A DNA stretch of 64,000 nt from Acidobacteriota bacterium (GCA_965205505.1 CBDBHB010000006.1:320001-384000), one strand, 5' to 3'; positions 6,998 to 30,470 are shown, numbered from the stretch's first letter. Notes: generated by a model from the letters alone, not told the origin. Numbers and translations: made by a program.

Positions 6998-7276
6998 CTA
7001 GCAGGCCGTGGTGAAAGTGTGGTGGGTCTGGTTACGGCGAGTTGGGGCCAGATGCAAGGCGGCCTGACACTGGCGATGCCCTAGCCATCGTCGAGGAAGG
7101 CCAACGCCGCAGATGGCCCCAAATCGCCGTAACCCTTCGGGCGACAGGGGGTTGCGCGCGTGTGCTGCGTCGTTCCTCGTCAACGATGGGGGTACCATCG
7201 CCTCCTCCTCTCTCCTTGCCTCCACCTCGCAAGACCTTGTCGCCAGACCCACCACACTTTCACCACGGCCTGCTAG
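6998..7276. mobile_element. MITE-like element A (279 bp) with 34-bp perfect terminal inverted repeats including CTAG
   Basis: CTAGCAGGCCGTGGTGAAAGTGTGGTGGGTCTGG at 6998 and its exact reverse complement ending at 7276. It holds two internal hairpin modules (7030-7134 and 7141-7243), has no credible coding capacity, and has related copies at 49337 and 50969. Confidence 0.88.
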
Positions 7277-7302
7277 TCCGATCGACGCCCTGCGGCGTCG
7301 CG

Positions 7303-9432
7303 TCAGGTGTCCCGTTCAGTCAGGCTCGCGCGCGCTCGGGGAACGACGAGAGCGTCCACTGCTACGCAGCCGCCAGGGCCGGCGATCAACGGGTTGATGT
7401 CGAGTCCGTCGATGAGATCACCCAGATCCACGGCGAGCACCGAGAGTCGCACGAGGGCGTCGACGACCGCGCGGGTATCGGCGGGCGACGCTCCGCGGAC
7501 GCCAGACAGCAGCCGTCGGGCAGCTAGGCCGTTCAGCAGCCGCTCGGCACGTGGCGCGTCTAGTGGCGGGAGTGCGAACGAGCGGTCACAGACGATCTCC
7601 ACCAGCACCCCGCCGGTGGCCGCCATCACCAGTGGGCCAAACTGAGCGTCGCGCACGATCCCCAGCGCCAACTCCACGCCGGCGGGAGCCATCTTCTGCA
7701 CCAACACCGGAGGGCCGAGCCGCTCGATGAGCCCGTTGCACGCGCTTTCGAAAGCCGCCGGGTTGTCGAGCCCTAAGATGACACCGCCTACGTCCGACTT
7801 GTGCGCCACTCCGGGCGCCGCGGTCTTGAGCGCTATTGGCCATCCGAAGCGCTCCGCCGCCGCGGCGGCGTCCGCGGTGCTGTCGGCCGTTTCTCCCTCG
7901 ATGGTCGGGAGACCGTAGTCGCTCAACAGCGCCAGCCCTTCCCGCTCACTCCAGCGAGCGCTATCGCTCAGTCGTCGGCGCCAGCGGTCGCGCACTTCCG
8001 CCGCGACCGGCGCCGGGGATGTGAAGCTCGGCAGCGCTGCGAAGTCGCGGCGATCGAACAACGCCCGGAAGGCTCGCAGCCCGGTAGCCGTACCCTCGAG
8101 CAACGGGACGCCGGCGTTGCGTATCAGCTCGGCCGACACCGCCGGTATCGCCGCTGGCAGGTTGCTCAAGACAGCCACCGGCTTGTCCGTCTCGGCGAAG
8201 ATCTCCGCCGCCATCCGATCGTAGAATTGCCCCGCGTCGTGGATGTAGTCTGCGAGGTCAATGACGAAGCCGAGGGCAGCGGTGTCAGGATCGGCAAGCA
8301 ACGCGCGCATGCACTCCATGAAGATCGTCTCGTAATTGGCTCCGGTGCCCCAGGCGTCGACCGGGTTCACGGCGGGCAGGCCGGGGTCCAGCACTGCCGC
8401 CAGCCGGCCCACGGTCTCGTCCGAGATCTGTGCCAGCGGCAGGCCCACGTCGGCGGCCACGTCGATGAGGTGGGCGCGTTCGCCTCCCGAGTCATGAACT
8501 GCCGCCAGCCCTCCCGGCGCCGCGCCACGGCCGCCGCTCAACAGCTCCAGCGTGTCGACCATTTCGTCGAGGTTGGCGACACGAATTACGCCGTACTCGC
8601 GGAACACGGCCTCGTAGGCTCCGTCCTCGCCGGCGAGCCCACCCGAATGCGCCACCACCAGCTCCTGCGCGAGCGGCTCGCGGCCGGTTTTCAGCACCAC
8701 TACCGGGATATCTTTCGCGTTCGCTAGCTGCAGCGCTTGGCGGAATCCCTGCGGATCACGGACCGTCTCCAGGAACATCGCGATCATGCCGGTCGATTCG
8801 AGCTCGAGCGCGTATTTCATGTAGTCGGCCACGGTCGTGGCCAGCTCCATACCAGTGGAAACCGCGAGGTTGAACTTCAACCCGCGCTGGTTGTGGGTCA
8901 TGGCGGTATAGGCCGAGCCCGAGTGGCTGAGCCAGGTGATCGGCCCGGCCTCCAGATCGGCGAGCTCCGGGTAGGCCAACGCCCGGAGCCCGTTCTCGAG
9001 GTTGAAGAAGCCCATCCCGTTGCCGCCGCAGACCGGCATTGCGTGCGCGCGTGCGATCTCGGACAGTCGCTGGGATAGCAGCGGCGCGCCCTCCTGCGGC
9101 TCTTCGTAACAACTGGCGAAGATCACCGCCGCGCCCGCGCCGCAGTCCGCGGCCAGTTGTAACTGGCCTTCGAGCAGCGAGTTCTTGACCCCGAGGATCA
9201 CCAGGTCGACCGCTTCCGGCAGGTGGTCGAGCGACGCGTAGCAGCGGAGTCCCTGCACCTCTTCGTAGCCCGGGTTGATCGGGTAGATGGGGCCCGTGAA
9301 GCCGCCGATCTTGAGCTCGGACACCATGGTGTAGCCGGCGGACCCGGGACGCTCGCTCGCTCCCACGATCGCCACGGATCGAGCGGTGAGCATGGGTGCA
9401 AGGTGCGGTTGAAGGGTGACGGTGTCCGACAT
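7303..9432 (-). CDS. Acetate--CoA ligase (ADP-forming) family acyl-CoA synthetase
   Basis: CoA-binding SVAIVGASERPGS, SHSGS, AHSGGLAG (phospho-His region), ATP-grasp HKSDVGGV and DINPL...AVDAL. Confidence 0.9.
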   Translation of the reverse strand: MSDTVTLQPHLAPMLTARSVAIVGASERPGSAGYTMVSELKIGGFTGPIYPINPGYEEVQGLRCYASLDHLPEAVDLVILGVKNSLLEGQLQLAADCGAGAAVIFASCYEEPQEGAPLLSQRLSEIARAHAMPVCGGNGMGFFNLENGLRALAYPELADLEAGPITWLSHSGSAYTAMTHNQRGLKFNLAVSTGMELATTVADYMKYALELESTGMIAMFLETVRDPQGFRQALQLANAKDIPVVVLKTGREPLAQELVVAHSGGLAGEDGAYEAVFREYGVIRVANLDEMVDTLELLSGGRGAAPGGLAAVHDSGGERAHLIDVAADVGLPLAQISDETVGRLAAVLDPGLPAVNPVDAWGTGANYETIFMECMRALLADPDTAALGFVIDLADYIHDAGQFYDRMAAEIFAETDKPVAVLSNLPAAIPAVSAELIRNAGVPLLEGTATGLRAFRALFDRRDFAALPSFTSPAPVAAEVRDRWRRRLSDSARWSEREGLALLSDYGLPTIEGETADSTADAAAAAERFGWPIALKTAAPGVAHKSDVGGVILGLDNPAAFESACNGLIERLGPPVLVQKMAPAGVELALGIVRDAQFGPLVMAATGGVLVEIVCDRSFALPPLDAPRAERLLNGLAARRLLSGVRGASPADTRAVVDALVRLSVLAVDLGDLIDGLDINPLIAGPGGCVAVDALVVPRARASLTERDT

Positions 9433-9509
9433 CACTCGAGCCGCCGTGAACCCGGCGCGCGATCGCAGCGATCGCGACGGTTCCTAGCGGCGGGTGTTGG
9501 AGTCTAAAA

Positions 9510-9525
9510 CTGACTGGTCATTCAG
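9510..9525. promoter_or_regulatory. Candidate TetR operator (imperfect TGAA-N6-TTCA palindrome)
   Basis: CTGACTGGTCATTCAG in the divergent intergenic region between the ligase and the TetR gene. Confidence 0.4.
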
Positions 9526-9608
9526 CCGCCGCAGACGATATCTCGCAGAACCCGGGAAGGAAAGACGTGCATGGTCTAGAATCACGGCATCGTTAGTTGA
9601 TCAACATC

Positions 9609-9624
9609 TTGAATAGGTGTTCAG
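9609..9624. promoter_or_regulatory. Candidate TetR operator (autoregulatory)
   Basis: TTGAATAGGTGTTCAG lies 17 nt before the TetR ATG and matches the sites at 16069 and 16178. Confidence 0.55.
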
Positions 9625-9641
9625 TAACCTCCTGTGTAGGT

Positions 9642-10277
9642 ATGGCTCCACGACTCAAGATCAGCCGCAAGCGGCGCCAGGAGATCCTCGAGGCCGCGGT
9701 GGAGACGATTGTCGAGCGCGGCGTTTGCAAGGCGCGAATTGCCGACATCGCCGACCGCACGGGAACGAGCCCCGCTCTGGTGCTCTACTACTTCGAGTCG
9801 AAGGACCGACTGCTCACCGAGGCGTTGGCCCATGCGGAGGACCGCTTCTATCTGGCGATCTTTGCCGAGCTGACCACGCTGGAGAGCGCCAGCGAGAAGC
9901 TCGTGCGGCTCATCGAGCTCAGCTGCGGTCACGAAACCATGGCACCAGTGCTGCGCGACGACTTCGCCCTTTGGATCGAGCTGTGGTCGCGGGCGCTGCG
10001 CGACGACGCCGCCGCCAAGAAGCGGGCCGCGGGCGATCGTCGCTGGCGCGCCACGATTGCCGATATCGTCCGTGAGGGCGAGTCGGCTGGCGAGTTCGAT
10101 GCTGTCGACGTGGAGGACTTTGCCATGCACCTCGCCTGCCTCCTCGATGGCATCGCAGTGCAGCACGTGCTGGGGGACCCGGAGGCCGACTACGAGCGCG
10201 CCCGCCGGATCTGCGTCCGCATGGCGTCGGAGTCCCTTGGTTTCGGGGTCCCGGCGTTGGTGACGGCGGACGCCTGA
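9642..10277 (+). CDS. TetR family transcriptional regulator (BetI-like C-terminal domain)
   Basis: HTH RRQEILEAAVETIVERG...IADIADRTGTSPALVLYYFESKDRLL, plus ALWIELWSRALRD. Confidence 0.92.
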   Translation: MAPRLKISRKRRQEILEAAVETIVERGVCKARIADIADRTGTSPALVLYYFESKDRLLTEALAHAEDRFYLAIFAELTTLESASEKLVRLIELSCGHETMAPVLRDDFALWIELWSRALRDDAAAKKRAAGDRRWRATIADIVREGESAGEFDAVDVEDFAMHLACLLDGIAVQHVLGDPEADYERARRICVRMASESLGFGVPALVTADA

Positions 10278-10344
10278 AGCCGTCGCGATCAAGGAGCTCC
10301 GGCGAGCGGGCGCGCACGATATTTGCCCTGCTCACTTGCGTCCG

Positions 10345-11633
10345 ATGGGCGCAGTCGGCGAGGCTCCCGCGATGGTCTTCCACCCTCGCGATCCTGCTTG
10401 GCGCCGCGGTGCTCTCAACCGCCGTGAACTGCTGCGCATCGTCGGTGGCGCTGGACTCAGTGCCAGCCTTGCCGGTTGCGGCTGCAGCGCCGGCGCTGCA
10501 GCCGACCGCCGGCGCGTCCTGATCGGGACACCGGAACACCCGGTTCGGCATCCGATATTCGATGACAACCCTCCGATCGACGGCGGCCTGGATATCGAGC
10601 CCGGCCCGTTGCGGATCTTCAACTGGGCCGACTACGTCCACATCCCGGTCTTGAACGCGTTTTCGGAGCGTTACGGCGTCGACTGGGAGTACACGACCTT
10701 CTACAACAACGAAGAAGCGATCCGTAAGCTGCGTACCAAAGCGGGCCGCTTCGACGTCTTTTTCCCGCCGGTCGAGCAGATACCCAAGTGCATAGCCGGT
10801 CAGCTGTTGCAGCCGCTCAACCACGCCTACCTGCCCAACCTCGCCAACGTGTGGCCGAGCCTAGTGAGCCCCTTCTACGATCAGGGAGCACGCTACACGG
10901 CTCCGTACTCGGTGTACCAAACAGGTATCGCCTGGCGGGCCGACATGGTCTCCCCTGACCTCGAGGCGTTGACCATCCGTGGCAGGTCTTCTGGGATCCT
11001 CAGTATTACGGGATCGCCGGCATGTACGACGACTACAAGGAGACCGTCGGGGTCGGCCTGTACGCCACCGGAACCAACGAAATCAACACCGCGGACCCGG
11101 CGCTGCTCGAGAAGGCCCGCCGCAAGCTGCTCGAGCTCATCGATCTGATCAACGTCCGCTTCACGATCGACGGTGTCTACGCCAAGATGCCGGAGCGTGG
11201 GTTCGCGCTGCATCATGCCTGGTCGGGCGATGTCGTTCAGTCGCGAGGCTACTTTCCCCGGGGTGAAGATCCGTCCGTGATGCGCTACTTCTGGCCGCCG
11301 CGGTCCGATCAGTCGAGCGCCGGCGGTATGGTTTCGGTGGAGTCCTTCGCCATCCCTCGCAACGCCGAGCATCCCGTGTTGGCGCATCACTTCATCAACT
11401 TCATGCTCGAGACCGCGAACGCCCTGAGCAACTTCGGATGGATCGGCAACCCACCGCCGCTGACGACGCTCAATCCGGAGACATTCGTGTCCGAGGGGCA
11501 CATACCACCGAACCTCGCTACTACGATCACCATCGAAGACGACTTTTCGATTGGCCAGCTGCCCCTTCAGCTGTCGCCTGAAGTCGAGATGGAATGGATG
11601 AAAGTTTGGGCGTCGGTTCAGTCAGGTGGCTAG
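10345..11633 (+). pseudogene. potD: Polyamine ABC transporter substrate-binding protein (PotD/PotF-like) with a 1-nt frameshift at ~10971
   Basis: Tat motif NRRELL, lipobox LAGC and LRIFNWADY. The reading GAG GCG TTG AC CAT CCG TGG lacks one G (expected EALDHPWQVFWDP). The 3' half continues as the ORF at 11022-11633 (AWSGD, FAIPRNAEHPVLAHHFINFML). Confidence 0.8.
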
Positions 11634-12537
11634 CGCCGCTGACTTCTCGCGCAATCGAACGTGGTTGTGGCGAGCGCTTGCAGCTCCCGGGATCGCATGG
11701 TTGCTGCTCTTCTTCGTCACACCGTTCTACGCGTTGCTATCGGTGGCGATGGGACGCCTCGACCCGATCTTCAGCAGCGCCGAGCCGGTCTGGAACCCGA
11801 TCCACTGGAACCCCGCGATCTTCCCCGAGATACTGGGCGAGCTGTTCGGCGGCCGCCTGGGGGCGATCTTCATTCGCACGCTCGTCTATGTCGGCACAGC
11901 GTCCACGCTCTGTCTGCTGATCGGTTATCCGGTCGCGTACTACCTCGCGCGCCACGCGGGTCGCTGGCGAGGACTGCTACTCGGTCTGATCGTCGCCCCC
12001 TTCTGGATCAACTACCTGATGCGGATGATGGCCTGGCAGAACCTGTTGGCGGTCGATGGTTACGTGAACCGATTTCTGATGTTCATCAACGCGCTCGATG
12101 CCCCGCGCGCCTGGCTGGTGGGTCACCACGAGACGGTGATTCTGGGGCTCGTGTACGGCTATGTACCGTTCCTGATCCTGCCACTGTACGCCGCTCTCGA
12201 CCAGATCGACAGCAGCGTGTTCGAAGCGGCACGCGATCTCGGCGCCGGCCCGGTGCGCACCTTCCTGCACGTAACGTTGCCGCTGTCCAAACAGGGAGTG
12301 CTGGCCGGCGTCGTGATCATCATGCTGCCGCTGTTCGGCGACTACTACACGCCGAATCTCCTCTCGGGGTCACCGCGCACGCGAATGATCGGCAATGAGA
12401 TCGATCTGTTCATCAACAGCGGCGTCGGCGGTGCCACCGGAGCCGCGCTGACGGTGGTCTTGATGGCGTTCATTGCGCTGTTGATGGCCTACTATCTATT
12501 TACCGTCATGGGCGCGGCGCGCGACAGCCAACAGTGA
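11626..12537 (+). CDS. potB: Polyamine ABC transporter permease (PotB-like)
   Basis: LIGYPVAYYLA, PFWINYLMR and EAA loop EAARDLGA. Confidence 0.88.
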   Translation: MASAADFSRNRTWLWRALAAPGIAWLLLFFVTPFYALLSVAMGRLDPIFSSAEPVWNPIHWNPAIFPEILGELFGGRLGAIFIRTLVYVGTASTLCLLIGYPVAYYLARHAGRWRGLLLGLIVAPFWINYLMRMMAWQNLLAVDGYVNRFLMFINALDAPRAWLVGHHETVILGLVYGYVPFLILPLYAALDQIDSSVFEAARDLGAGPVRTFLHVTLPLSKQGVLAGVVIIMLPLFGDYYTPNLLSGSPRTRMIGNEIDLFINSGVGGATGAALTVVLMAFIALLMAYYLFTVMGAARDSQQ

Positions 12538-13403
12538 TCGGCCGGGTCATTCGCTGGTGGCGTGACCCGTGGGGTCAACCACGACTGTTGCAGCTGTTTG
12601 TCTGGGTCTACATTGCATGGTCGTTGTTGCCGGTGCTTATTGCCGTGCAATTCGGGTTCAATGCCGGCCGGTCGCGCAGCATCTGGCAGGGGTTATCGCT
12701 GCGCTGGTACTTCACCGATCCGACCCTGTCCGTCTGGAACGATGGGTCGCTGATAGCAGCGTTGACGCAAAGCCTCAAGCTCGCCGGGCTGACGATGCTG
12801 GTTGCCACGCCGCTCGGTGTGGCGCTGGCGCTCGGCCTTGCAAGGTGGAGGGGTCGCGGCTCGAAGCCCGCCAACTTCCTGCTGCTGCTGCCGATGGCGA
12901 CCCCCGAGCTGGTCATGGGCGTGTCGCTGCTCATGGTCTTCATCTACCTGTTTCCGTTCATTCAGCTCGGCACGTGGGCGCAGCTCATCGGCCATGTCAC
13001 ATTCACGATCTCGTACGTCGTCATAGTGGTACGCGGCCGCCTCTTCGCGATCGGCCGCGACTATGAAGAGGCGGCGATGGACCTCGGCGCGACCCCGGCG
13101 CAGGCAGTGCGCATGGTGCTGCTGCCGCTCATGGCGCCGGCGATCTTCGCCAGCCTGATGATCGCCTTCGCGGTGTCGATCGACGACTTCGTGATCAGCG
13201 CGTTCCTCTCCGGAGGCGCGGATTCGGCGACGATTCCTGTGCGTCTCTACAGCGCTGCGCGCCTGGCGCCGACGCCGGCGCTCAACGCGCTGGCCAGCAT
13301 CCTGCTGTTCCTGACCCTTCTCGCGGTGGCCGGCGCGGTGCTGGTCATGCGACGGTCGGGAGGCAGCGGATCGGCCGTCGACGAGTTCGCGCGGCTCAGC
13401 TGA
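12534..13403 (+). CDS. potC: Polyamine ABC transporter permease (PotC-like)
   Basis: SLRWY, EEAAMDLGATP and FAVSIDDFVIS. Confidence 0.88.
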   Translation: MIGRVIRWWRDPWGQPRLLQLFVWVYIAWSLLPVLIAVQFGFNAGRSRSIWQGLSLRWYFTDPTLSVWNDGSLIAALTQSLKLAGLTMLVATPLGVALALGLARWRGRGSKPANFLLLLPMATPELVMGVSLLMVFIYLFPFIQLGTWAQLIGHVTFTISYVVIVVRGRLFAIGRDYEEAAMDLGATPAQAVRMVLLPLMAPAIFASLMIAFAVSIDDFVISAFLSGGADSATIPVRLYSAARLAPTPALNALASILLFLTLLAVAGAVLVMRRSGGSGSAVDEFARLS

Positions 13404-13500
13404 TATGTGCGGTGGTCCTCTGTGCGGCGGTGCCGGGCTCTCGATGCCCTGACTCCGGATGCTGCAGCAGCCGGGGCTACCGGGTCTGGTCGGGCGTCCT

Positions 13501-14600
13501 TCAGTCACTTCCCAGCACGCGCAGCGCTGACGATGCCAGGACTACCGACACGCGGCTGCCCCTCGAGTAGGCCATCGTGTCGCCATGATTGGTGATCATG
13601 GCTTGCACCGTCTGGCCGCCGTCGAGCTGAATGAACATCTGCGTGATCGAGCCCATGTAGACTAGGCGCTCGACCTCGCCGAGCAGCCGGTTCGGTCCCG
13701 GCCGGTCGGGGTTGCCGACCTCCAGCCGCTCCGGTCGAAGCATGATCTTCACTCGACCGCGGGCGTCGAGGTCGCCGCTCCCGGCAACCAGCTCGCTGTC
13801 GCCGATCGCCACCCGACAGCCGCCGTCTGGGTGGTCGCCCAGGGCCTCGCCGTCGATGACGTTCGATACCCCCAGGAAATCGGCCACGAAAGCGCTGGCC
13901 GGCTCTTCGTACACCTCGCGCGGCGGGCCCAGCTGGCGGATCGTGCCCTCGTGCATGACGCACATGCGGTCAGACAGTGCCAGCGCTTCCTCCTGATCGT
14001 GGGTGACGTAGACAAAGGTGATCCCGACGCGCTCCTGGATTCGCTTCAGCTCCACCCGCAGCGTTCTCTTGAGCTGGGCGTCGAGCGCGCCGAGCGGCTC
14101 GTCGAGCAACAGCACCGCGGGATCGAGCACCAACGCGCGGGCCAGGGCGACGCGTTGTTGCTGGCCGCCGGAAAGGCGCGTCGGCCGCCGATCGATCATG
14201 CCCTCCATCTGCACCAGCTCGAGCGCGTGCCGCACTCGCTCGCCGATCTCCGCTCTGGGGAGGCTTCGAAAGCGCAGCCCGAAGCCGACGTTTTCGCCCA
14301 CGTCGAGGTGGGGAAAGAGCGCATAGCTTTGAAAGACGGTGTTGACGTTGCGCTTGTGCGGCGGCGTCTCTGATAGATCTTCTCCGTCGAGGTAGATCTG
14401 GCCGGCGGTCGGTCGCTCGAAGCCGGCGACCAAGCGTAGCAAAGTGGTCTTCCCACACCCGGACGGTCCGAGGAGAGAAAGAACTCGCCCGGCGCCACCT
14501 CCAGGTCGACGTCGCGCACAGCGGTGAGGTCACCGTAGCGTTTGACTAGCCCGCTGAGACGCAGGTGGCCACCGTGTTCGCTGTCCTGCCCGACTGTCAA
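13501..14600 (-). pseudogene. potA: Polyamine ABC transporter ATPase (PotA-like) with a 1-nt frameshift at ~14478
   Basis: The N-terminus (LVKRYGDLTAVRDVDLEVAPGEFF) is out of frame with Walker A LLGPSGCGKTT because GAG TTC TT TCT CTC lacks one base. Downstream it has LSGGQQQRVALAR, LLLDEPLGALD, VTHDQEEA and a TOBE tail. Confidence 0.82.
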
Positions 14601-14664
14601 ACAGGCACCCTTGTGCCGGCTCGCCGTGCGGCCACCGGTGACCCCCGGCAGCTGCTTGTCGGAC

Positions 14665-16044: not shown

Positions 16045-16068
16045 CGCAGCCTACTCCGTGGATATTCT

Positions 16069-22184: not shown

Positions 22185-24098
22185 GTGCCTGGAAAGAGAG
22201 CAAGCTGGTCCCTGATCGCGATCGCAGCGCTGGTCACTGCAATTCTGGTATCCGGCGGTGCCGCGAGCCAGGCTTCCCAGGACGGCTACGAGGTACGCCG
22301 CGACCGCAGCAACATGGTGCCGATGCGGGACGGCGTGCGGCTGTCGACCGATCTGTACTTCCCCGAAGGCACCGAGGGGCCCCACTCCACCGTCCTCATC
22401 CGGACGCCCTACAACAAGGAGAACAGTGGCCGCGGCACCACCGTTTCGATGTTCGTCGACAAGGGCTACGTGGTGGCGGTGCAGGACATCCGTGGCCGCT
22501 ACGAGTCTGAAGGCAACTACCGGTTGCGCTATTCCGACCGCGAGGACGGCTACGACACAGTGGAGTGGATGATCAACCAGTCGTGGTCCAACCAGAAGGT
22601 GGCCAGCTTCGGCTGCTCGTACCTAGGCGAGACGCAGCTGGCGCTGGCGGCTTCCAAGCACCCCAATCACATCGCGGCGATGCCCGCGGCGCCCTCGTCG
22701 GCCTACTACCCACCGGGGCGGCCCTGGGCGTCCTACGACGGCGGCGTGTTCGAGCTGGCGCAGACGGCCGGCTGGTTCATGGGCGCCGGTAGCAAAGTGT
22801 TCCTGCAGCCACCGGATTGGGTCGACCGCGAGGAGTGGTTCAAGGGCGAGATGGCGCGCAAGTTCGAGAACTACGCCGACCCTCGTCGTGGCACCGAGGG
22901 TGGCGGCCGCCGAAGCCGCGTCGGCGCCTTCGACGCTCTACCGGTGATCGACCTCGTCAAGAACACCGGCATGACGCACACCGACTACGAGGAATACCTC
23001 ACCAATCCGCCGGAGTCTGATTACTTCTACGACAACGACTTCATCCGCTCCGACGACACCTTCGACGTGCCGGCGCTGTACATCGACTCCTGGTACGACT
23101 TCGGCGTCGACGAGACGCTGACGATGTTCAACCAGATGCGCGACAACGCGGTCAGCGAGCACGCCCGCAGCAACCAGTTCGTCATCGTCGCCCCGTCGAC
23201 CCATTGCGGTTGGACGCGCGCCACCGAGAACACCATCATCGGCGAGCGTGAGCTCGGCGACGCGCGCAAGGACTTCCTCGACATCTACATGCGCTGGATG
23301 TCGCACTGGCTCGACGGCGAGGACAACGGCATCACCGACATGCCGCGGGTGCAGTACTACCTGATGGGCGCCAACGAGTGGCGCGAGTCGGAGGTATGGC
23401 CGCCGGAGGGCACCACCGACACGAAGCTTTACCTGAACTCCGGCGGCCGCGCCAACAGCCGCTTCGGCGACGGCACGCTGTCGTGGAGCGCCCCGAGCGG
23501 CGATCAACCGGCCGATCGCTACACCTACGATCCAGGTACTCCGGTGCCGACGCGCGGCGGCAACACCTGCTGCACGGGTCTGCCTGACGGCTCAGGTAGC
23601 TATGACCAGTCGAACAACGAGATGCGCGCCGACGTCCTCGTCTATACGTCCGAGCCGCTGGAGGAAGGCATCGAGATGAGCGGCGACATCAGCGCGGTGC
23701 TCTACGTCGGCTCCGACGCGAAGGACACCGACTTCATGCTCAAGCTCGTCGACGTCTACCCAGATGGACGCGCCTTCAACATCCAGGAAGGCGCGCGCCG
23801 CGTGCGCTACCGCGACAACGACTCGGTACCCGTTTGGATGGAGGAAGGCGAGGTCTACGAGATCCGACTCGACCTGCACTCGTCGTCCAACTACTTCGGC
23901 AAGGGGCACCGGATCCGCGTCGACGTGACGAGCAGCGACTTCCCGCGCTTCGACCGCAACCTCAACACCGGCGGCAACAACTACGACGAGACCGAGTGGG
24001 TGGTGGCCCAGCAGATCGTGGAGCACTCGGCGCAGTACCCGTCGCACGTGATCCTGCCGATCGTGAAGTCGGGTGCGGTCGCCGACGACGAGGAGTAG
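22185..24098 (+). CDS. CocE/NonD family serine hydrolase (secreted), paralog 2
   Basis: Same motifs as paralog 1 (GCSYLG, TRGGNTCC, NLNTGG) with long identical stretches. Confidence 0.9.
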   Translation: MPGKRASWSLIAIAALVTAILVSGGAASQASQDGYEVRRDRSNMVPMRDGVRLSTDLYFPEGTEGPHSTVLIRTPYNKENSGRGTTVSMFVDKGYVVAVQDIRGRYESEGNYRLRYSDREDGYDTVEWMINQSWSNQKVASFGCSYLGETQLALAASKHPNHIAAMPAAPSSAYYPPGRPWASYDGGVFELAQTAGWFMGAGSKVFLQPPDWVDREEWFKGEMARKFENYADPRRGTEGGGRRSRVGAFDALPVIDLVKNTGMTHTDYEEYLTNPPESDYFYDNDFIRSDDTFDVPALYIDSWYDFGVDETLTMFNQMRDNAVSEHARSNQFVIVAPSTHCGWTRATENTIIGERELGDARKDFLDIYMRWMSHWLDGEDNGITDMPRVQYYLMGANEWRESEVWPPEGTTDTKLYLNSGGRANSRFGDGTLSWSAPSGDQPADRYTYDPGTPVPTRGGNTCCTGLPDGSGSYDQSNNEMRADVLVYTSEPLEEGIEMSGDISAVLYVGSDAKDTDFMLKLVDVYPDGRAFNIQEGARRVRYRDNDSVPVWMEEGEVYEIRLDLHSSSNYFGKGHRIRVDVTSSDFPRFDRNLNTGGNNYDETEWVVAQQIVEHSAQYPSHVILPIVKSGAVADDEE

Positions 24099-24108
24099 GC
24101 GAACGCCG

Positions 24109-26418
24109 TCAGCCCGTCGTGAGCATTCCGGCCGCGATGCCGGTGACGGTTTCGCGGAAGAGGCTTTGCTCAGCGCGGCTCCAGCGCGGCTTCGAGAGCA
24201 GCTCGATCTGCAGCAAGTTGAGCGGGTGGATCATCGGCGCCCGGTAGTGGATCGATTCCTCGAGCCAAGGTCGATCGGGCAGCAGGGTGCCTTCGGAGGT
24301 GGCTGAGCAGGCGAGCTCGACGGCGGCGGCATAGCTGCCATCGAGCTTGCGCGCCAGCTTGCGTACCGCCCGCGGCGCCAGCGCCCGGCGATAGGCGAGC
24401 CAGAGCTCGGGCTCGGTCTTGGCGAGGGTGAACGACAGCAGGCGCAGGTAGCTGCGCAGCAGCGGGTCGCGGCGCCGCGCCGAGGTCAGGCGCTTGACGG
24501 CGTCGCGCGATTCGGCCAGCCGGCTCCACGCTTCGCCGATTCCGAGCCAGGCGTGGAGCAGAAGCCGCGTCTGAGTCCAGCACAGCACCCACGGAATGGC
24601 GCGCAGCTTCTCGAGACCCGCCTTCTCGGCGGCGCCTGCGCGCCGCGTGGGACGTGAGCCGATCGTCAGCGCTTGGAGCCGCGCGTAGGGCGTCGCGTCG
24701 CGGAGCAGGTCGTGGAACGTCTCGGAGCCGACGAGCTCGGCGAAGACGCGCTCCGAGCTTTCCGCCAGCTCGGCGGCGAGCTTGCCGACGCCGCGATAGG
24801 CGGGCGGGTCGGTCTGGATCGAAGCCACCTTGTGCACGAGACTGCGGAGAATTTCCGGTGTCGCCAGGGTGCGCTCGATCATCTCCCCCTGGAGCGTGTG
24901 CTTGTACAGCGAAAGCGCGGCGGGCGGCCAGGTCGCCGCCAGGTCGTCGATCGTGCCCCCGCCCCGCCCGACGCTGCCGCCGGAGCCATGGAAGAAAACC
25001 ATCCGCACGTCCTGCCGCTCGGCCCAGGCCCCCAGCTCGCGCATTGCTCGATGGACCCCGACTCGGCTGGCCAGCATGCCCATGCGCTTGGCCGTGTCGG
25101 AGTAGCCAAGCATCACCTCGACCTGGCCCCGCCGACGTGCGCAGGAGCGGAACTCGCGATCCGTCCAGGCATCGCTGAGAATCCCGCGAGCCCGCGCGAT
25201 CACCTCGGGCAACTCGAAGAGCGGGATCACCGGGATGAGCGGCCGGCCAAGCATCCGCGTCACGAGGCGCTGCGCCTGAATCAGGTCAGATCCCTCGGAC
25301 GTCATGCTCACCACGCAGCCGCGCGCGTACCAGTCGACCTGCCCGCCGTCGGCGATTCGACCCAGAGTGCGCAGCATGGCGGCGATCGGGGTGCCGCGCT
25401 CGAACCGGCCGCGCTCCTCGCGCAGCTCCAGCGGCACGACGAGCGCGGGGAAGACGTCGAGCAGCGTGGCCAGGCTCGTCACCTGCGGCTGCTCGGCCGA
25501 CAGACGGCGCCGGTAGGCCGACTGGAAGCGCTGGACGCTTCGCTGGAGCTTCAGGATGCGGCCGCCGTCGCCGGCCCTCACCCTGCGGACCGCTGCGAGC
25601 GCCTCTTCGAGGCCCGCCTGCGCCCGATCGACCGGCAGGCTGCCGAGCAACGCGGCGTCCTCGCGAACCGCCGCCATCAGGCCGGTCTCCACGAACTCGA
25701 GAAATCGCTGCCGAGCGAGCTGCAGCGACGCCCGGCTCTGGGCTGCTCCCACGCCCGGATGCCCGTCCTTGTCGCCCCCGACCCAGGTGCGCAGCAGCAA
25801 CCGGTGGCCCGAGGCGTTGAGCGCGACGATCTCGTCGAGGATCGGGTCGGTGAGTAGCGAGTACAGGTGCGCCGCCTCGTCCTCGACCGTCGGCTTGTGC
25901 GGCGGGTGCGTGCCGACGCGCCAGGCGAGCTGGAGAAGGTTGCCGAGCTGCGATCGGTCGATGGGTCGACCCGCCTCCAGCGATTCCACCAGCAGATCCT
26001 GGACGCGGCGCAGCAGCCGGATGTTCTCCGGCGAGCGCGACTCGGTGGGATGCGCCGTCAGCACGAAGGTCATGCACGCCCGCGCCTCCGACGGCGCGCG
26101 GCGGCGTTCGCGCAGCCGATGGGTCCGGAAGGCGTTCTCGCACACGTTCACCAGCTCCAGGTAAAGGGTGTAGGCGCGAGCCACCAGCAGCTGGCGTTTT
26201 ACCGGGAGGGCGACAAGCCGTCGCCTGCCGCGCGCGAGCGCACCGGCACGCCCGCGTCGACTCGAAGCTTCGCGGAACGCGACCATGTCGCGCCGCACCC
26301 GCTCGATGATCTCGTAGAGCTCGGCGCCCTCGGCCACGGCCACGACCTCGCCGAGGATCGCCTGGACATCGCCCACCAGCGTTCGCAGCGCCGGCGGCAG
26401 ATATTGCGGTTCTTTCAT
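24109..26418 (-). CDS. ppc: Phosphoenolpyruvate carboxylase (short, divergent type)
   Basis: VLTAHPTE, WVGGDKDGHP, VMLGYSDTAK, FHGSGGSVGRGGG, QGEMI, IGSRP, LRAIPW and GIAAGMLTTG. An alternative TTG start lies at 26433. Confidence 0.9.
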   Translation of the reverse strand: MKEPQYLPPALRTLVGDVQAILGEVVAVAEGAELYEIIERVRRDMVAFREASSRRGRAGALARGRRRLVALPVKRQLLVARAYTLYLELVNVCENAFRTHRLRERRRAPSEARACMTFVLTAHPTESRSPENIRLLRRVQDLLVESLEAGRPIDRSQLGNLLQLAWRVGTHPPHKPTVEDEAAHLYSLLTDPILDEIVALNASGHRLLLRTWVGGDKDGHPGVGAAQSRASLQLARQRFLEFVETGLMAAVREDAALLGSLPVDRAQAGLEEALAAVRRVRAGDGGRILKLQRSVQRFQSAYRRRLSAEQPQVTSLATLLDVFPALVVPLELREERGRFERGTPIAAMLRTLGRIADGGQVDWYARGCVVSMTSEGSDLIQAQRLVTRMLGRPLIPVIPLFELPEVIARARGILSDAWTDREFRSCARRRGQVEVMLGYSDTAKRMGMLASRVGVHRAMRELGAWAERQDVRMVFFHGSGGSVGRGGGTIDDLAATWPPAALSLYKHTLQGEMIERTLATPEILRSLVHKVASIQTDPPAYRGVGKLAAELAESSERVFAELVGSETFHDLLRDATPYARLQALTIGSRPTRRAGAAEKAGLEKLRAIPWVLCWTQTRLLLHAWLGIGEAWSRLAESRDAVKRLTSARRRDPLLRSYLRLLSFTLAKTEPELWLAYRRALAPRAVRKLARKLDGSYAAAVELACSATSEGTLLPDRPWLEESIHYRAPMIHPLNLLQIELLSKPRWSRAEQSLFRETVTGIAAGMLTTG

Positions 26419-26561
26419 TCGGTTACTGGCCAATGCCTCCCCCCGTTCCGCGGCTCGACTTGATCATAAGAGGCTGGCCGACGGTGTGGAGAATCGAAGT
26501 CAGTTGACGTAGGTCGGCGCCGCGATAGTTGCCGGGCGTCGTTTCGGCAGGCGCTCTCCGC

Positions 26562-27488
26562 TCAGACAGGATCGCGCCGCAACGGCTGCGCCATGCAGTG
26601 CACGCCACCACCGCCCTTGGCGAACATCGACACGTCGGGGTCGTAGACCTCGAATCCCATGGCGCGCAGGCGCGCGTTCAGGTCGGTGCTTTCGGCGGTA
26701 GAGAGGATGCGATCGTTGCCCAGCGACATGACGTTGCAGCCGAGCGTCATGGTGTCCTGAAAGCTCACCGGCACGATCTCGATGCCCTTGGCCTCGAGCC
26801 AGTTGACGATCGACGGTTCGGTGGTCTCCAGGCACACGGCGCAGGCCTTCTCGGCGAGCATGCAGACCATCAGGTCGATGTGCACGTAGAACGGGTCGAT
26901 CGGGGCGTAGCGAACCTCCCAGCCCTCGGCCTCCATCCAGCCGCCGATCTGTTTTGCGGCGACCTCCTCGCAGCGAAATCCGGTATAGCCGATGAGCACG
27001 CAGTCGGGGCCGATGATGTTGAAGTCGCCGCCCTCGAAATTGCCCGCCGACACCAGGTCGTAGAGCGGGATCCCAGCGCTGGCATAGAACCGCAGGACCG
27101 AGGCGTACTCACCGCGCCTTCGCGGGTTGGCGAGCTGGCAGACGACGGCGCCGTAGGGCGTCATGAAGCTGGAGTCGCGCGCGTATACCTGGTACGGGGT
27201 GGACTCGTCGACCTCGAGCAGGTGCACGGTCACTCCCGCGGATCGATACGCATCCACCATCTCGACGTGCTGCCGCGTCGCCAGCTCGTGGTCGAATTTC
27301 TCGCCTGACTCCAGCGTGGCGCGCGAGATCGAGCTGAACTGAGCGTTGTCCGCCATCCAGTAGAAGCTGTCCGGCGGCCCCAGCAGCACGTCGCGCAGAG
27401 CGCCGTGCTCGGAGCTGATACCCCAGTCGTCGAGGGCCGGCGTGTTGCCGCCCGGGTGTCGTGTTCTGAAAGATGTGTCGCTCATCAT
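26562..27488 (-). CDS. Amidinotransferase/arginine deiminase (pentein, DDAH-like) family protein
   Basis: SEHGALRDVLL, YARD, FEGGD, HIDL and GGGGVHCM (catalytic Cys). Confidence 0.88.
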   Translation of the reverse strand: MMSDTSFRTRHPGGNTPALDDWGISSEHGALRDVLLGPPDSFYWMADNAQFSSISRATLESGEKFDHELATRQHVEMVDAYRSAGVTVHLLEVDESTPYQVYARDSSFMTPYGAVVCQLANPRRRGEYASVLRFYASAGIPLYDLVSAGNFEGGDFNIIGPDCVLIGYTGFRCEEVAAKQIGGWMEAEGWEVRYAPIDPFYVHIDLMVCMLAEKACAVCLETTEPSIVNWLEAKGIEIVPVSFQDTMTLGCNVMSLGNDRILSTAESTDLNARLRAMGFEVYDPDVSMFAKGGGGVHCMAQPLRRDPV

Positions 27489-27686
27489 TTGCTCGCGATC
27501 GGATCGGAGCTCGATCTGGAAGCGCCATGCGCCTCCCGGGAATTCTGGCTCTAGGCGCTCCGTATACTCGCACGGTTCGCGTCGGCGGTGGGGGGCCGGT
27601 ACCATCCGCGCACCGTGGAATCTCCCCCCGTGCGCGCGAGAGGATGACGGACAACGTCCATCAAAGGCTGAAGGAAGCGTGACGCC

Positions 27687-28859
27687 ATGGAATTCCAGCT
27701 ATCCGATGAGCAGGAGATGGTCGTCGAGACCGTCCGCGCCTTCGTCGAAAAAGAGCTCGTTCCGCACGAGGAGGAAGTCGAACGCACCTGCGAGCTATCG
27801 GACGAGCTGCGCCAGCAAATACGAAAGGCGGCGATGGACGCCGGGCTTTGGGCCGCCAACATGCCCGAGGAGTTGGGCGGCGGTGGACTCGATACCGTGA
27901 CCCACATGCTCCTGGAGCGGGAGCTCGGTCGCACCAACCTGGCGCTGCACTGGGAAGTCTACCGACCAAGCAACATCCTACAGGGCGGCACGCCCGAGCA
28001 GATCGAGGAATACCTCATGCCGTGCATTCGCGGCGAGCGCTTCGACTGCGTCTCGATGAGCGAGCCCGACGCCGGCTCCGATGTTCGCGGTATCACCACG
28101 CGTGCCGTCCAGGACGGCGATGACTGGGTGATCAACGGCTCCAAGCACTTCGCGTCCTATGCCGACGTGGCCGACTTCATCATCCTGTTCGTCTCCACCG
28201 GGGTCGACGAGACGCCGCGCGGCCCGAAGGCCCGCATTACGACGTTCTTGGTCGACAAGGGCACCCCGGGGTTCACCTGGCACCGCGGCTCCCAGGCCGT
28301 AGGGCTTCGCGGTTTCCACCACTGCGAGCTCTTCTTCGACGACTGCCGCGTTCCGGCCTCGAAGGTGCTCGGTGAGGAGGGCAAGGGATTCGATCTGGCC
28401 AATACCTGGCTGTCGGCGGCGCGCATCGGCACCTCGGCGAACTCCATTGGCAAAGCACGGCGTGCTCTGGAGATAGCCACCGAGTGGGCCGCCACGCGCA
28501 AGCAGTTCGGCCAATCCATTGGCCGCTTCCAGGGCGTGTCGTTCAAGCTCGCCGACATGGCCACCGAGCTCGAGGCGGCCGAGCTGCTGACGTTTCGAGC
28601 CGCTTGGAAGCACGACCAGGGAACGATGACCGAGCAGGACGCCGCCATGGCAAAGCTCTACACCAGCGAGATGCTCGGGCGTGTGACCGACGAGGCGTTG
28701 CAGATCTTCGGCGGCATGGGTTTGGTGTCGGAGCTGCCGCTGGAGCGCATGTGGCGCGACGCTCGCGTCGAGCGGATCTGGGAGGGGACCAGCGAGATCC
28801 AGCGCCATATCATCGGGCGCATGCTGTTGCGTCCGCACGAACAGCGGGCCGGATCGTAG
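27687..28859 (+). CDS. Acyl-CoA dehydrogenase family protein
   Basis: MSEPDAGSD, WVINGSKHF, RKQFG, LQIFGGMG and RIWEGTSEIQR. Confidence 0.93.
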   Translation: MEFQLSDEQEMVVETVRAFVEKELVPHEEEVERTCELSDELRQQIRKAAMDAGLWAANMPEELGGGGLDTVTHMLLERELGRTNLALHWEVYRPSNILQGGTPEQIEEYLMPCIRGERFDCVSMSEPDAGSDVRGITTRAVQDGDDWVINGSKHFASYADVADFIILFVSTGVDETPRGPKARITTFLVDKGTPGFTWHRGSQAVGLRGFHHCELFFDDCRVPASKVLGEEGKGFDLANTWLSAARIGTSANSIGKARRALEIATEWAATRKQFGQSIGRFQGVSFKLADMATELEAAELLTFRAAWKHDQGTMTEQDAAMAKLYTSEMLGRVTDEALQIFGGMGLVSELPLERMWRDARVERIWEGTSEIQRHIIGRMLLRPHEQRAGS

Positions 28860-28922
28860 TCGCGTGTTCTCGGTTCTGGCGATCTCGGCGCTGCTGCCGC
28901 TGCAATCGGGTCCGGGGTCGCC

Positions 28923-30170
28923 TTGAGCGTGGCGGACGACCTGCGCGTCGACGGTGGGCGCCTGCTGTCGAGCCTGATGGAGATGGCGTCGATCGGAGCC
29001 ACCCCGAAGGGCGGCGTCGACCGTCAGGCGCTGACGGACGGCGACCGAGAAGCGCGAGATTTGTTTGCCCGCTGGTGCGCAGATGCCGGCTGCAGCTTGA
29101 CCGTGGACGCGATGGGAAACATGTTCGCCCGTCGTCCAGGCGCCGACGACACCCTGCCGCCGGTGGCCATGGCCAGCCATCTCGACAGCCAGCCAACCGG
29201 TGGAAAGTACGACGGCGCCTACGGCGTGCTCGCTGGCCTGGAGGCAGTACGCACGCTCAACGACGACGGCGTGCAGACCGAGGCGGCGCTCGAGGTGATC
29301 AACTGGACCAACGAGGAAGGCGCCCGCTTTCCTCCAGCGATGATCTCATCGGGAGCGTTCGCCGGCGTGTTCGACCTCGAATATGCCTGGAGCCGCGCCG
29401 ATCACCAAGGGTTGACCATCGGCCAGGAGCTGGATCGGATCGGCTACCGCGGCGACGAGACGGTCGGCGACCACCCCCTGGGGGCGTGTTTCGAGCTGCA
29501 CATCGAGCAGGGTCCGATTCTTGAGCGCGCTGCTACCCCGGTCGGCATCGTCACCGGCGTGCAGGGCATGCGCTGGTACGACGTCGCGCTGACCGGTGAC
29601 CAGGCGCACGCTGGGCCCACCCCGATGGAGATGCGTCGCGATGCGCTCGCCGGAGCCGCGTCGCTGCTATCGAAGATCTACGCGCTGGCAACCGATCGGG
29701 CGCCGTCGGGACGGGCAACGGTCGGCGAGCTGCACACCGGCAGGGGGTCGCGAAACACGGTTCCGGCGAGTGTGAAGTTCACCGTCGATATTCGACATCC
29801 CGAGGAAGCCGAGCTCGAGGCGATGGATGCAGGTCTCCGCGCGGCTGCCGCTGAAGTGGCCGCCGCTGCTCGGCTGGAGTATTCGATCGACCACATCTGG
29901 TCCGCCGCTCCGGTGGCGTTCGACTCCGGTTGTATCGCCGCGGTGCGCCAAGCTGCCGAGACCGTCGGCTGCGCGGCGATGGAGATCGTCAGCGGTGCCG
30001 GACACGATGCGGTTTACGTCTCCCGGGTCGCACCCACGAGCATGATCTTCGTGCCCTGTGAGGGCGGGATCAGCCACAACGAAGCCGAGCACGCCGAGCC
30101 TGACGATCTCGAGGCCGGCGCCAATGTCCTGCTGCACGCGGCGCTAGCTCGTGCTGGAATAGCAGGCTAG
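28923..30170 (+). CDS. M20 Zn-dependent N-carbamoyl-amino-acid amidohydrolase (beta-ureidopropionase/allantoate amidohydrolase-like)
   Basis: SHLDSQPTGGKYDG, WTNEEGARF, ELHIEQGP, HAGPTPM, SGAGHDA and GISHN. Confidence 0.92.
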   Translation: MSVADDLRVDGGRLLSSLMEMASIGATPKGGVDRQALTDGDREARDLFARWCADAGCSLTVDAMGNMFARRPGADDTLPPVAMASHLDSQPTGGKYDGAYGVLAGLEAVRTLNDDGVQTEAALEVINWTNEEGARFPPAMISSGAFAGVFDLEYAWSRADHQGLTIGQELDRIGYRGDETVGDHPLGACFELHIEQGPILERAATPVGIVTGVQGMRWYDVALTGDQAHAGPTPMEMRRDALAGAASLLSKIYALATDRAPSGRATVGELHTGRGSRNTVPASVKFTVDIRHPEEAELEAMDAGLRAAAAEVAAAARLEYSIDHIWSAAPVAFDSGCIAAVRQAAETVGCAAMEIVSGAGHDAVYVSRVAPTSMIFVPCEGGISHNEAEHAEPDDLEAGANVLLHAALARAGIAG

Positions 30171-30193
30171 TCCTACTGATCATGAGTACGGCA
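30167..30193. repeat. Degenerate solo copy of the element B terminal repeat
   Basis: CTAGTCCTACTGATCATGAGTACGG matches the TIR CTAGTGCTCCTGATCATAAGTACGG at 22/25 positions. It begins on the TAG stop of the amidohydrolase. Confidence 0.75.
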
Positions 30194-30470
30194 CTAGTGC
30201 TCCTGATCATAAGTACGGTGACGTTTGTGGCGCGCGACCGGGGCGAATTGTAGGAGCGGCGACGAGGGCGATGCTGGGTGTATCGTCGAGGCGCCGCGAC
30301 GCCCAAGGTGGCCGGTCCCGCGGCCACCCGGAGGGCAGGAGCGATATGCGGGCGATCTCGGCGTCAAGGCTCGTCGAGGATGGCTAAGGCATCGCCTTCC
30401 TCACCCTTCCTTGATCTCGCCCGCATCTCGCTCCTGCAAACGTCACCGTACTTATGATCAGGAGCACTAG
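30194..30470. mobile_element. MITE-like element B (277 bp) with 34-bp perfect terminal inverted repeats including CTAG
   Basis: CTAGTGCTCCTGATCATAAGTACGGTGACGTTTG and its exact reverse complement ending at 30470. Two hairpin modules (30228-30326 and 30335-30437). The right CTAG supplies the stop codon of the methyltransferase. Confidence 0.88.

Follow-up and report, generated by a model that had tools for sequence, protein, structure and literature searches.

Elements A and B and their surroundings

The window, by which we mean the whole 64,000-nucleotide stretch of DNA that was analysed, very probably from an Acidobacteriota bacterium, contains two MITEs, elements A and B, neither of which has a transposase gene within its 277-279 bp (Table 1). 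Element A sits between two minus-strand genes, 26 nt from the stop of an ADP-forming acyl-CoA synthetase-like gene and 29 nt from the start of a GCV_T aminomethyltransferase gene. Element B lies between convergent genes encoding a peptidase M20 (plus strand) and a methyltransferase (minus strand); the methyltransferase stop codon is the TAG of the right-hand CTAG of element B, and the peptidase M20 gene stops at the TAG of a relic of a B-like terminal repeat. Three further fragments of classes A and C lie elsewhere in the window.

Table 1. Coordinates of the elements, their parts and related fragments within the window
Feature	Position	Strand	Remarks
Element A, class-A MITE	6998..7276	none	279 bp
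Element A, left terminal inverted repeat	6998..7031	+	34 nt
Element A, alpha hairpin module	7029..7137	+	cluster K01
Element A, beta hairpin module	7137..7245	-	cluster K00; sense on minus strand
Element A, right terminal inverted repeat	7243..7276	-	34 nt
B-like terminal repeat relic	30167..30191	+	88% identical to B end
Element B, class-B MITE	30194..30470	none	277 bp
Element B, left terminal inverted repeat	30194..30227	+	34 nt (35 nt if arm taken as 30193-30227)
Element B, alpha hairpin module	30224..30331	+	cluster K03
Element B, beta hairpin module	30331..30439	-	cluster K04
Element B, right terminal inverted repeat	30437..30470	-	34 nt (35 nt if 30437-30471)
Class-A element with single beta module	49337..49512	none	176 bp; K00; shortened right end
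Truncated class-A element	50969..51057	+	left terminal repeat and first half of beta module
Class-C terminal repeat remnant	52450..52470	-	21 nt

The first-pass annotation had described perfect 34-bp terminal inverted repeats starting with CTAG, and the arms are indeed 100% complementary in both elements; CTAG is present at both ends of B, while the CTAG at an end of A is composed of a flanking C, the duplicated TA and the first element base, G. Its account of two hairpin modules facing each other round a tiny hairpin is likewise accurate for A and for B, the central small palindrome being CCCTTCGGG in A and CCCGGAGGG in B, and both elements fold far more stably than shuffled sequences (z = -12.9 for A and likewise for B). 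The alpha module of A carries its core as CAAGG..GGCGATG-N7-CATCGTCGA..AACGC, with a loop that includes CTAG. A core shared by all four modules had also been claimed, and the pattern GGCGATG-N7-YATCS-TYGA is matched five times in the window and in none of 100 dinucleotide-preserving shuffles; the fifth match, beside those in the four modules, is at 49411-49433, and the 176-bp single-module element at 49337-49512 is probably the 'element C' of the earlier annotation. The first module of A (A1) aligns with the reverse complement of the second module of B (B2) over 95 nt at 74.7% identity (E = 2.7e-9), and the likeness is thus one of homology, more than of a motif.

Structure and conservation of the hairpin module

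The module is about 105 nt long and its conserved core consists of CAAGG, GGCGATG-N7-CATCGTCGA with a G.U pair, and RACGC. In a structure-blind MAFFT alignment compensatory changes are found in 22 of 28 pairs, and 88.7% of cells are paired, the corresponding figures being 68.9% for shuffles and 27-48% with the partners slid, which bears out the proposal that the module is kept up at the level of structure. Divergence is almost complete in the outer stems and in the terminal repeats, against which the core, its unpaired bases included, is unchanged; the internal loops also contain conserved unpaired bases. The G.U pair is conserved on the sense strand in 20/26 and 48/68 sequences. On a model-fitted alignment of related sequences, G.U cells exceed A.C cells between lineages (59 versus 25), an excess that is absent in singletons (18 versus 24), pointing to a strand-specific fold in the lineages that persist. 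An Rfam check had been recommended, and no family matches: the window has no match at gathering thresholds, and at an E-value threshold the matches are solely to plant microRNA hairpin models, far under their cut-offs (44.5 versus 168 bits for the best sub-threshold match, and 13.5 versus 60 bits for the weakest listed).

Copies, ends and transposases

Both elements are multi-copy. The 5.98-Mb genome (a 9-contig assembly, 96% complete) contains full copies of A (45), B (23), C (20) and C' (9) on several contigs, and blastn with a minimum of 250 nt and 85% identity gives 46 matches for A and 23 for B. Copies of B are 97-99% identical, and B is missing from its orthologous position in G001 and in G004, both of which hint only indirectly at mobilization in trans. 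There are 370 non-overlapping module matches in 215 groups, 121 of these groups being head-to-head pairs, most of them with repeats of 32-35 nt. An alpha module accompanies a beta module in 24 of 25 adjacent pairs, over every end class, and the alpha and beta clades each have an SH-aLRT support of 93. The module is present in 22 of the 26 genomes of the order and, in a sample of the phylum that takes in the unpublished genome G070, in 40/151 genomes and 29/107 genera; matches also occur in bins labelled as other phyla. Of 20 loci inspected in the phylum, 18 have an element of 274-288 bp. We note that the repeat breaks short-read assemblies, contigs ending inside it in the four runs examined.

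The CTAG at the ends had been attributed to targeting of the IS5/IS1182 type, an origin that three observations do not support: copies at non-CTAG sites retain TA alone on both sides; the empty B site in G001 has one CTAG; and the ends of classes B, C, C', C'' and D resemble those of DDE_3 insertion sequences. The duplicated target is TA and the ends are IS630-like. Duplication of TA by IS630-family elements is described in PMC2170065, which cites Tenzen & Ohtsubo (1991) for TA within CTAG. The end classes are nearly wholly different past the first few bases, but all begin TA-G-YRG and form a graded series. A search with Pfam DDE_3 gave matches at six places in the genome, and in comparisons made by eye the ends of the resident IS630-family (DDE_3) insertion sequences resemble classes B, C'' and D, the left repeat of B resembling the left end of the resident IS630-family element at G000:C9:263590-264779; insertion sequence ends in G007, G013, G142 and G004 resemble, also by eye, C, C' and related classes. 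The search for autonomous insertion sequences with the same ends that had been suggested thus yielded resembling ends for B, C, C', C'' and D, and no autonomous partner with class-A ends in G000, G004 or G007. DDE_3 has no match in G003, G011 or G012, all three of which are rich in modules. Across the phylum sample, the presence of the module shows only a weak link with that of DDE_3: 18 genomes have both, 22 the module alone, 37 DDE_3 alone and 74 neither, by a hand count in which related genomes are not independent.

Mobility, host function and known systems

We regard A and B, with a probability of about 0.6, as members of one old superfamily of non-autonomous IS630/Tc1-mariner-type MITEs in which the core aids mobilization in cis and the copies, once inserted, decay neutrally; the family is most likely selfish rather than of use to the cell. 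Each element, of about 279 bp, consists of TA, a 32-nt terminal repeat, alpha, an opposed beta, a terminal repeat and TA, and inserts into TA, by preference in CTAG. As it starts with G and ends with C, CTAG is rebuilt on both sides, so that a gene stays intact on insertion into its C-TAG stop. Resident IS630-family DDE_3 transposases would read the terminal repeats in trans, and as the transposases change the repeats would diverge or be swapped, giving one alpha-beta chassis with many classes of ends; we read the whole element as the inherited unit, with ends that turn over. The core would be kept because only elements with an intact core yield new copies; as a cis-acting aid to mobilization, it might work as a folded single strand or extruded hairpin joining both ends, or might be bound by a conserved protein of the host. 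Keeping alpha unlike beta would avoid a single long perfect palindrome, and a review of REP dimers ties long palindromes to instability (PMC3733652). Only tentatively, and with the odds against it, do we suggest that the alpha/beta hairpin is a new strand-specific cis element that IS630/Tc1-mariner MITEs need, or that a conserved Acidobacteriota protein recognizes, forming a universal chassis that any resident transposase could serve via changed 32-nt ends. A role for a single-stranded fold would be without known precedent in Tc1/mariner, since transposition there is described as double-stranded cut-and-paste without hairpin intermediates (PMC2170065).

Full elements are intergenic in 95 of 97 cases (on crude gene calls), and at 32 of 107 facing gene ends the TAG stop falls within the CTAG of the element, which makes co-transcription probable for many copies. 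This would suit a structured RNA exapted by the host, whose modules act in transcripts (3' UTR or intercistronic) as a stabilizer, an RNase III-type processing site, a Rho-polarity block or a protein site. The sense-strand G.U pair with its excess over A.C and the unpaired bases kept in internal loops are in keeping with such a role, and Correia and ERIC MITEs are described as altering mRNA processing and stability (PMC2229807). Singletons, some of which may be assembly errors, are about half as frequent at paired as at unpaired module sites (81/576 versus 67/256; Fisher p = 2.6e-4), which could reflect some selection on structure in resident copies and so favour a role in RNA or for the host. 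We nevertheless find this doubtful. The core is unprotected in individual copies, with singletons per site no fewer in the conserved core (85/434) than in the outer stems (63/398), and with unpaired core sites (48/182) matching the terminal repeats (66/272); among singletons the G.U excess is lost; elements beside gene ends are alpha-proximal in 34 cases and beta-proximal in 31, with no orientation bias seen towards upstream genes; and the orthologous copy of A in a close relative, G004, has been cut to 56 nt. Searches for features of canonical promoters and of intrinsic terminators turned up neither, and the CTAG target alone suffices to explain their nearness to stop codons. The host function raised as a possibility at first pass thus shows no sign in single-copy mutations, orientation or orthologous decay, and free mutation of the core, the lack of orientation bias and the mostly deleted orthologue argue that the core is kept by selection for mobility.

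That shortfall of singletons at paired sites is also what palindrome self-correction, by template switching or arm conversion, would give, and stem covariation might then arise with no function at all, the core owing its apparent conservation to recent horizontal spread. The patchy distribution in the phylum and the matches in bins of other phyla would fit, but self-correction leaves the conserved unpaired bases and the strand-specific G.U excess unexplained, stems within families of modules have 17 two-sided against 229 one-sided changes, and the core has stayed constant while outer stems and ends diverged; we consider it improbable. The first-pass annotation proposed instead that unrelated ends had captured the hairpin pair independently and repeatedly as modular cargo. 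The module does stand behind many end types that are almost entirely unlike past their first bases; moreover, nine end pairs 250-349 bp apart (not inspected singly) join different classes, class-A ends are found with two beta types (K00 and K08), nested insertions occur in module loops (K10, K13, K18) and some modules are chimeric (M020, M063, M151, M334). What does not agree with capture is that alpha and beta keep their order in every class, that element length is nearly constant, that the ends are graded, that the alpha and beta subtypes of one class have diverged from those of the others, as descent of the whole element would lead one to expect, and that old ends nested in new ones, as capture predicts, are seen in no element. 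We therefore think repeated capture unlikely, ranking it behind a host RNA and ahead of the absence of function. A further reading has a tyrosine transposase (HUH, RAYT-type) moving REP/REPIN-like units as single-stranded DNA, with the IS630-like ends secondary; the modules recall REPINs in forming head-to-head dimers of hairpins, in their conserved motif and in their strand polarity, and tyrosine transposases flanked by long terminal repeats are reported in Acidobacteria (PMC3733652). This we think very improbable indeed: Y1_Tnp (PF01797) has no match in the 96%-complete genome, the modules are about 105 nt rather than 20-40 nt long and lie within TA-flanked inverted ends, and clear families of free-standing modules were not found.

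MITEs are usually defined by their ends, with the interior taken as filler. In the present family it is the interior that is conserved: the double hairpin, with a constant core and with alpha and beta in set order, persists across the order, and patchily across the phylum, on a background of changing ends and stems. A need for the core in mobility would imply a cis requirement or a cofactor so far unrecognized in IS630/Tc1-mariner transposition; should the hairpin prove to be the strand-specific cis element suggested above, a family believed to require no more than a transposase and double-stranded ends would have to accommodate an intermediate that is single-stranded or structured, or else a cofactor from the host. 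The covariance model can serve as a ready marker in annotation, covering about 0.8% of these genomes, and insertion into a C-TAG stop codon, with the stop rebuilt, is an example of a harmless landing site.

Stowaway MITEs of plants, which are of Tc1/mariner type and target TA, have internal sequence that is reported to raise transposition frequency, which would set a precedent for tuning of the interior to mobility; they are eukaryotic, and are not known to have a defined conserved hairpin core common to their end classes. Among bacterial elements, the resemblance to ERIC/IRU repeats noted at first pass does not extend to sequence, as element A has no blastn match (word 11, E <= 0.01) in 20,395 E. 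coli records from 5,426 genomes, a species whose genomes carry ERIC. ERIC/IRU elements are similar as intergenic imperfect palindromes with TA termini and an RNA structure affecting mRNA stability, but are described as 127 bp long with 7-bp terminal repeats, compared with 279 bp and 34 nt in element A, and their effects depend on orientation (PMC2229807), in which the present elements have no bias. REPIN and REP dimers also pair two inverted hairpins, often as heterodimers, round a short conserved motif, although they are presented as units of 20-40 nt with a GTAG or CGTC tag and without long terminal repeats or TA duplication (PMC3733652). The Correia/NEMIS elements of Neisseria are TA-flanked MITEs with long terminal repeats that are co-transcribed and whose RNA hairpins are reported RNase III substrates; compared by description, they differ in being 107-155 bp long with one core region and no alpha-beta pair (PMC2229807). 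In one census the share of MITEs with a resemblance to ISfinder entries was just 1.6% (PMC11602168). The pneumococcal RUP (IS630-Spn1-type) shares with the present elements a non-autonomous nature, ends like those of an IS630-family insertion sequence (here by eye, in classes B, C, C', C'' and D), a TA target, many intergenic copies and a long stem-loop, and is described as 107 bp long with 9-bp repeats and a single type of end, known from one species (PMC2229807), whereas the elements reported here are about 279 bp long, with 32-34-nt repeats, two core-bearing modules, many end classes and a phylum-wide distribution.

Elements A and B and the hairpin module

The two MITEs of the window, elements A and B, lie where the first-pass annotation had placed them, with perfect inverted ends of 34-35 nt that start with CTAG and, inside each, two long hairpins facing one another across a small central palindrome (see the table below). 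Its proposal of a common module core is likewise borne out: the core pattern matches five times in the window (the fifth within a single-module element) and 0 times in 100 shuffles, and module A1 aligns with the reverse complement of B2 at 74.7% identity over 95 nt (E = 2.7e-9), so the interior common to A and B is homologous. Element A has genes of the same strand as neighbours: an acyl-CoA synthetase-like gene whose stop is 26 nt before it and a GCV_T gene whose start is 29 nt after it; element B is flanked by a peptidase M20 gene and a methyltransferase gene that converge on it, and both stops fall within CTAG. Scanning A and B for promoters and terminators gave 0 sites. Small ORFs within the elements (85 and 81 aa) were judged to be high-G+C artefacts because the stems change by compensation, and a reading of GGAGG..GGCGATG as a ribosome-binding site with ATG was set aside, since the frames downstream lack conservation from subtype to subtype.

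Positions of the elements, remnants and end pairs discussed in the text
Feature	Sequence	Position	Length or spacing
Element A	window	6998-7276	279 bp
Element B	window	30194-30470	277 bp
Single-module element	window	49337-49512	176 bp
Element remnants with the gene between them	window	50969-52470	
Class-A end pair, L037:283-1653	G000:C8	961282-962652	1,371 bp
Class-B and class-A elements end to end, L124	G000:C9	1253466-1254019	

The hairpin formed by the module is genuine and conserved, and the suggestion that it is kept at the level of structure has held. RNAalifold, run on a MAFFT alignment of 26 representatives (the four A/B modules, 18 cluster representatives from the source genome G000 and four from other records), gave one long hairpin of 28 pairs, 22 of which show two-sided changes that keep the pair. 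In this alignment 88.7% of cells are paired (a count that includes four chimeric rows) versus 68.9% on shuffling, with 0/500 shuffles as high as observed, and 27-48% are paired when partners are slid by 1-3 columns. For 70 matches from 41 loci of other genomes the figures are 93.8% and 68.7%, in a model-fitted alignment that leans towards structure. Conservation extends over a 5'-side CAAGG, an internal loop rich in purines, a tip stem GGCGATG / CATCGTC around a 7-nt variable loop, with a G.U pair present in 20/26 and 48/68 sequences, then GA.GA, RACGC on the 3' side and a terminal CCC; mean pairwise identity is 0.66 in core columns versus 0.52 outside the core. Rfam searches at gathering and at E-value thresholds returned no meaningful match to a known family.

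Further copies are abundant in G000 (5.98 Mb, 64% G+C, 9 contigs). A profile built from the four A/B modules over three iterations gave 372 matches. Without overlaps there are 370, which form 215 groups (123 of two modules, 81 single and 11 larger), and 121 of these groups are head-to-head pairs. The modules form 54 clusters, 16 of which have at least five members, and each end class has two subtypes of its own. The ends of module pairs fall into classes A (CTAGCAGGCCGTGG...), A' (TAGCAGGGTGCTGAA...), B (CTAGTGCTCCTGATC...) and C (CTAGTGGCCTGTAACAGATG...), together with C', C'' and the rare D and E. Full copies, taken as those with at least 88% identity over the full length, number 45 of class A, 23 of B, 20 of C and 9 of C', and there are 34 more end pairs 120-230 bp apart, mostly with one module. 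Elsewhere in the window, a truncated class-A element (an end plus half a module of the beta type) and a 21-nt class-C end remnant flank a gene of 410 aa, zinc-type alcohol dehydrogenase / enoyl reductase-like (ADH_N, ADH_zinc_N); these remnants were probably left by decay and are not parts of a composite element.

Transposon type and target site

Where copies lack C...G flanks (for example E010, E101, E205, E081 and E013), TA alone is repeated on either side. At the site of element B, where G000 has a relic B-like end and B, genome G001 of the same genus has a single CTAG, and G004 has neither the relic end nor B. The target duplication is TA, which the account in PMC2170065 gives as a hallmark of IS630/Tc1-mariner elements; a preference of IS630 for TA inside CTAG is cited in the reference list of the same paper. 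Matches to DDE_3 (PF13358), the IS630-family transposase domain, occur at six places in G000 in two IS types, the ends of one resembling classes B and C'' and those of the other class D, and IS copies in G007, G004, G013 and G142 have ends like C, C' and a class found in loci L140/L076. The duplication and these IS ends therefore leave the IS5/IS1182-type targeting proposed in the first-pass annotation unsupported, and the elements are an IS630-type MITE superfamily on a double-hairpin chassis.

No module lies inside an autonomous IS copy among 36 transposase loci; the 12 model matches found there are complete MITEs, placed directly against IS ends with a CTAG in common, and are not parts of the IS. 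An autonomous partner with class-A ends was searched for in G000, G004 and G007 and not found. The only clean A-A end pair 1.37 kb apart, which is without a hairpin module, was rejected as such an element; the 428-aa ORF inside it encodes three Endoribonuclease L-PSP (RidA/YjgF) domains, not a transposase, and the pair looks like a passenger-carrying mobile cassette on MITE ends. The CTAG regenerated at an element end is in turn open to a further insertion. One CTAG is common to the class-B and class-A elements of locus L124, and the relative G007 has 43 DDE_3 matches and two IS630-family IS types (~1,207 and 1,161 bp, copies >99.5% identical), whole MITEs abutting 5/9 fetched copies of the 1,207-bp type (L177-L205). 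CATAGA is one of the recurrent flanks beside class-C ends. In the reads of four runs, contigs enter the element B site from both flanks in 4/4 and break within the repeat, and no contig joins across an empty site.

By crude gene calls (ORFs of at least 100 aa with third-position G+C excess; 4,120 genes, 77% coding, incomplete), 95 of the 97 full elements fall between genes (47 in tandem, 30 in convergent and 18 in divergent arrangement); one of the other two lies within a gene call and one beside a contig end. A TAG stop lies in the terminal CTAG at 32/107 gene 3' ends that face an element. Since elements begin with G and finish with C, a C-TAG stop that receives one at its TA regains both the stop and CTAG. 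CTAG is rare in G000, with 5,853 sites versus ~19,800 expected from base composition (~3.4-fold under-represented). Of the 4,120 crudely called genes, 1,577 (38%) end in TAG, and many TAG stops fall in CTAG at MITE ends; the MITEs may shape stop-codon usage, or the reverse.

Descent of the chassis and the level of selection

It had been proposed that unrelated ends carry the same cargo. The ends do differ; their capture of a common cargo is not favoured by the pattern of descent. The module tree has 85 rows (96 minus four chimeric, five weaker opposite-strand duplicates and two of <100 nt), which form an alpha clade of 50 and a beta clade of 35 (SH-aLRT 93 each), the two types running in opposite directions within one element. 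Of 25 adjacent module pairs, two of them sequence-identical, 24 combine one alpha with one beta, the exception being L088, which has long branches, and this pairing spans end classes A, B, C'' and D-like and the distant genomes G125, G035 and G142. Element length is 274-288 bp in 18 of 20 loci across the phylum, the outliers being one of 256 bp, which runs into a contig end, and one of 378 bp, and the ends of these loci differ in sequence and all begin TA-G-YRG. We read the whole alpha-beta element as descending as a unit with turnover of its ends. Some exchange between chassis and ends does occur: class-A ends are found with two beta types, there are nine mixed-class end pairs (not inspected singly), and class-A elements are inserted in the CTAG of module loops.

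Singletons, substitutions confined to a single one of the 97 full copies, number 66 over 272 sites in terminal repeats (0.243 per site), 48 over 182 in unpaired core (0.264), 37 over 252 in paired core (0.147), 19 over 74 in unpaired outer (0.257) and 44 over 324 in paired outer parts (0.136). The core as a whole is not protected (85/434 versus 63/398 for the outer part), and the rate at paired sites is about half that at unpaired sites (Fisher p = 2.6e-4). Weak selection for structure, a protective effect of pairing on the bases or hairpin self-correction could each account for this deficit; two-sided changes were few in a within-family test of palindrome self-correction. Stem singletons comprise 18 G.U versus 24 A.C, and between lineages there are 59 G.U versus 25 A.C with the fixed G.U pair excluded, in a model-fitted alignment of related rows. 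Within 60 nt of gene 3' ends, alpha is proximal in 34 cases versus 31 for beta, and of the G004 orthologue of the A copy the last 56 nt only remain. Taken together, the singleton, wobble, orientation and decay results indicate that copies, once resident, degrade in a nearly neutral fashion. Selection acting between elements on their ability to generate new copies best accounts for the conserved core, for which we infer a cis-acting mechanism. To the overall reading, an IS630-type MITE whose core has a cis-acting role, we give a probability of roughly 0.6; the IS630 assignment is much firmer than the role of the core.

Distribution and relation to known repeats

Within the order, 22 of 26 genomes have a module match, including 12/12 of good quality, often with >100 matches each. 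In an even sample of the phylum (E <= 1e-5) the module occurs in 40/151 genomes and 29/107 genera, a tally that includes the unpublished genome G070 and is one genome fewer without it. DDE_3 is present in 55 of the 151; by hand count, 18 genomes have module and DDE_3, 22 the module only, 37 DDE_3 only and 74 neither, and three MITE-rich relatives with many modules (G003, G011 and G012) have no DDE_3 match. Either the MITEs persist after their transposases are gone, or they are tied to DDE_3 less closely than assumed.

The exact core pattern occurs in at least 69 stretches of public genomes; among the matches listed, most are titled Acidobacteriota, Acidobacteria or Thermoanaerobaculia, which points to Acidobacteriota as the probable phylum of the host, and eight are titled as other taxa. 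L040 and L048, with other-taxon titles, are chance matches with no module by profile. Module pairs are present at L041, L047, L070, L088, L099 and L103, on contigs of bins titled Chlamydiota, Gemmatimonadota, Myxococcota, Brocadiia and Pseudomonadota, and these six may reflect mis-binning or MITE transfer beyond Acidobacteriota. Viral contigs gave 0 stretches with the core pattern, and phage and plasmid collections no match to element A.

The feature is genuine, occurs in many copies and has a conserved structure. Full-text searches on MITEs, IS630 and repeats of Acidobacteria and on stem-loop MITEs with compensatory changes turned up no description of this family in Acidobacteria; the large MITE census PMC11602168 may list such elements in its supplements. 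The resemblance to ERIC seen in the first-pass annotation is unsupported, since blastn of element A found no match in E. coli genomes; Correia and ERIC, as treated in PMC2229807, are functional analogues at the RNA level. With REP/REPIN, as outlined in PMC3733652, the elements have in common the idea of a head-to-head hairpin dimer, but size, tag and enzyme are different, and a search of G000 for a Y1 transposase (Y1_Tnp) found none. As a superfamily on a double-hairpin chassis the elements are new within a known kind, the IS630-type MITEs, and closest to them in kind is RUP of pneumococcus, on the description in PMC2229807 an IS630-type MITE of 107 bp with a TA target.
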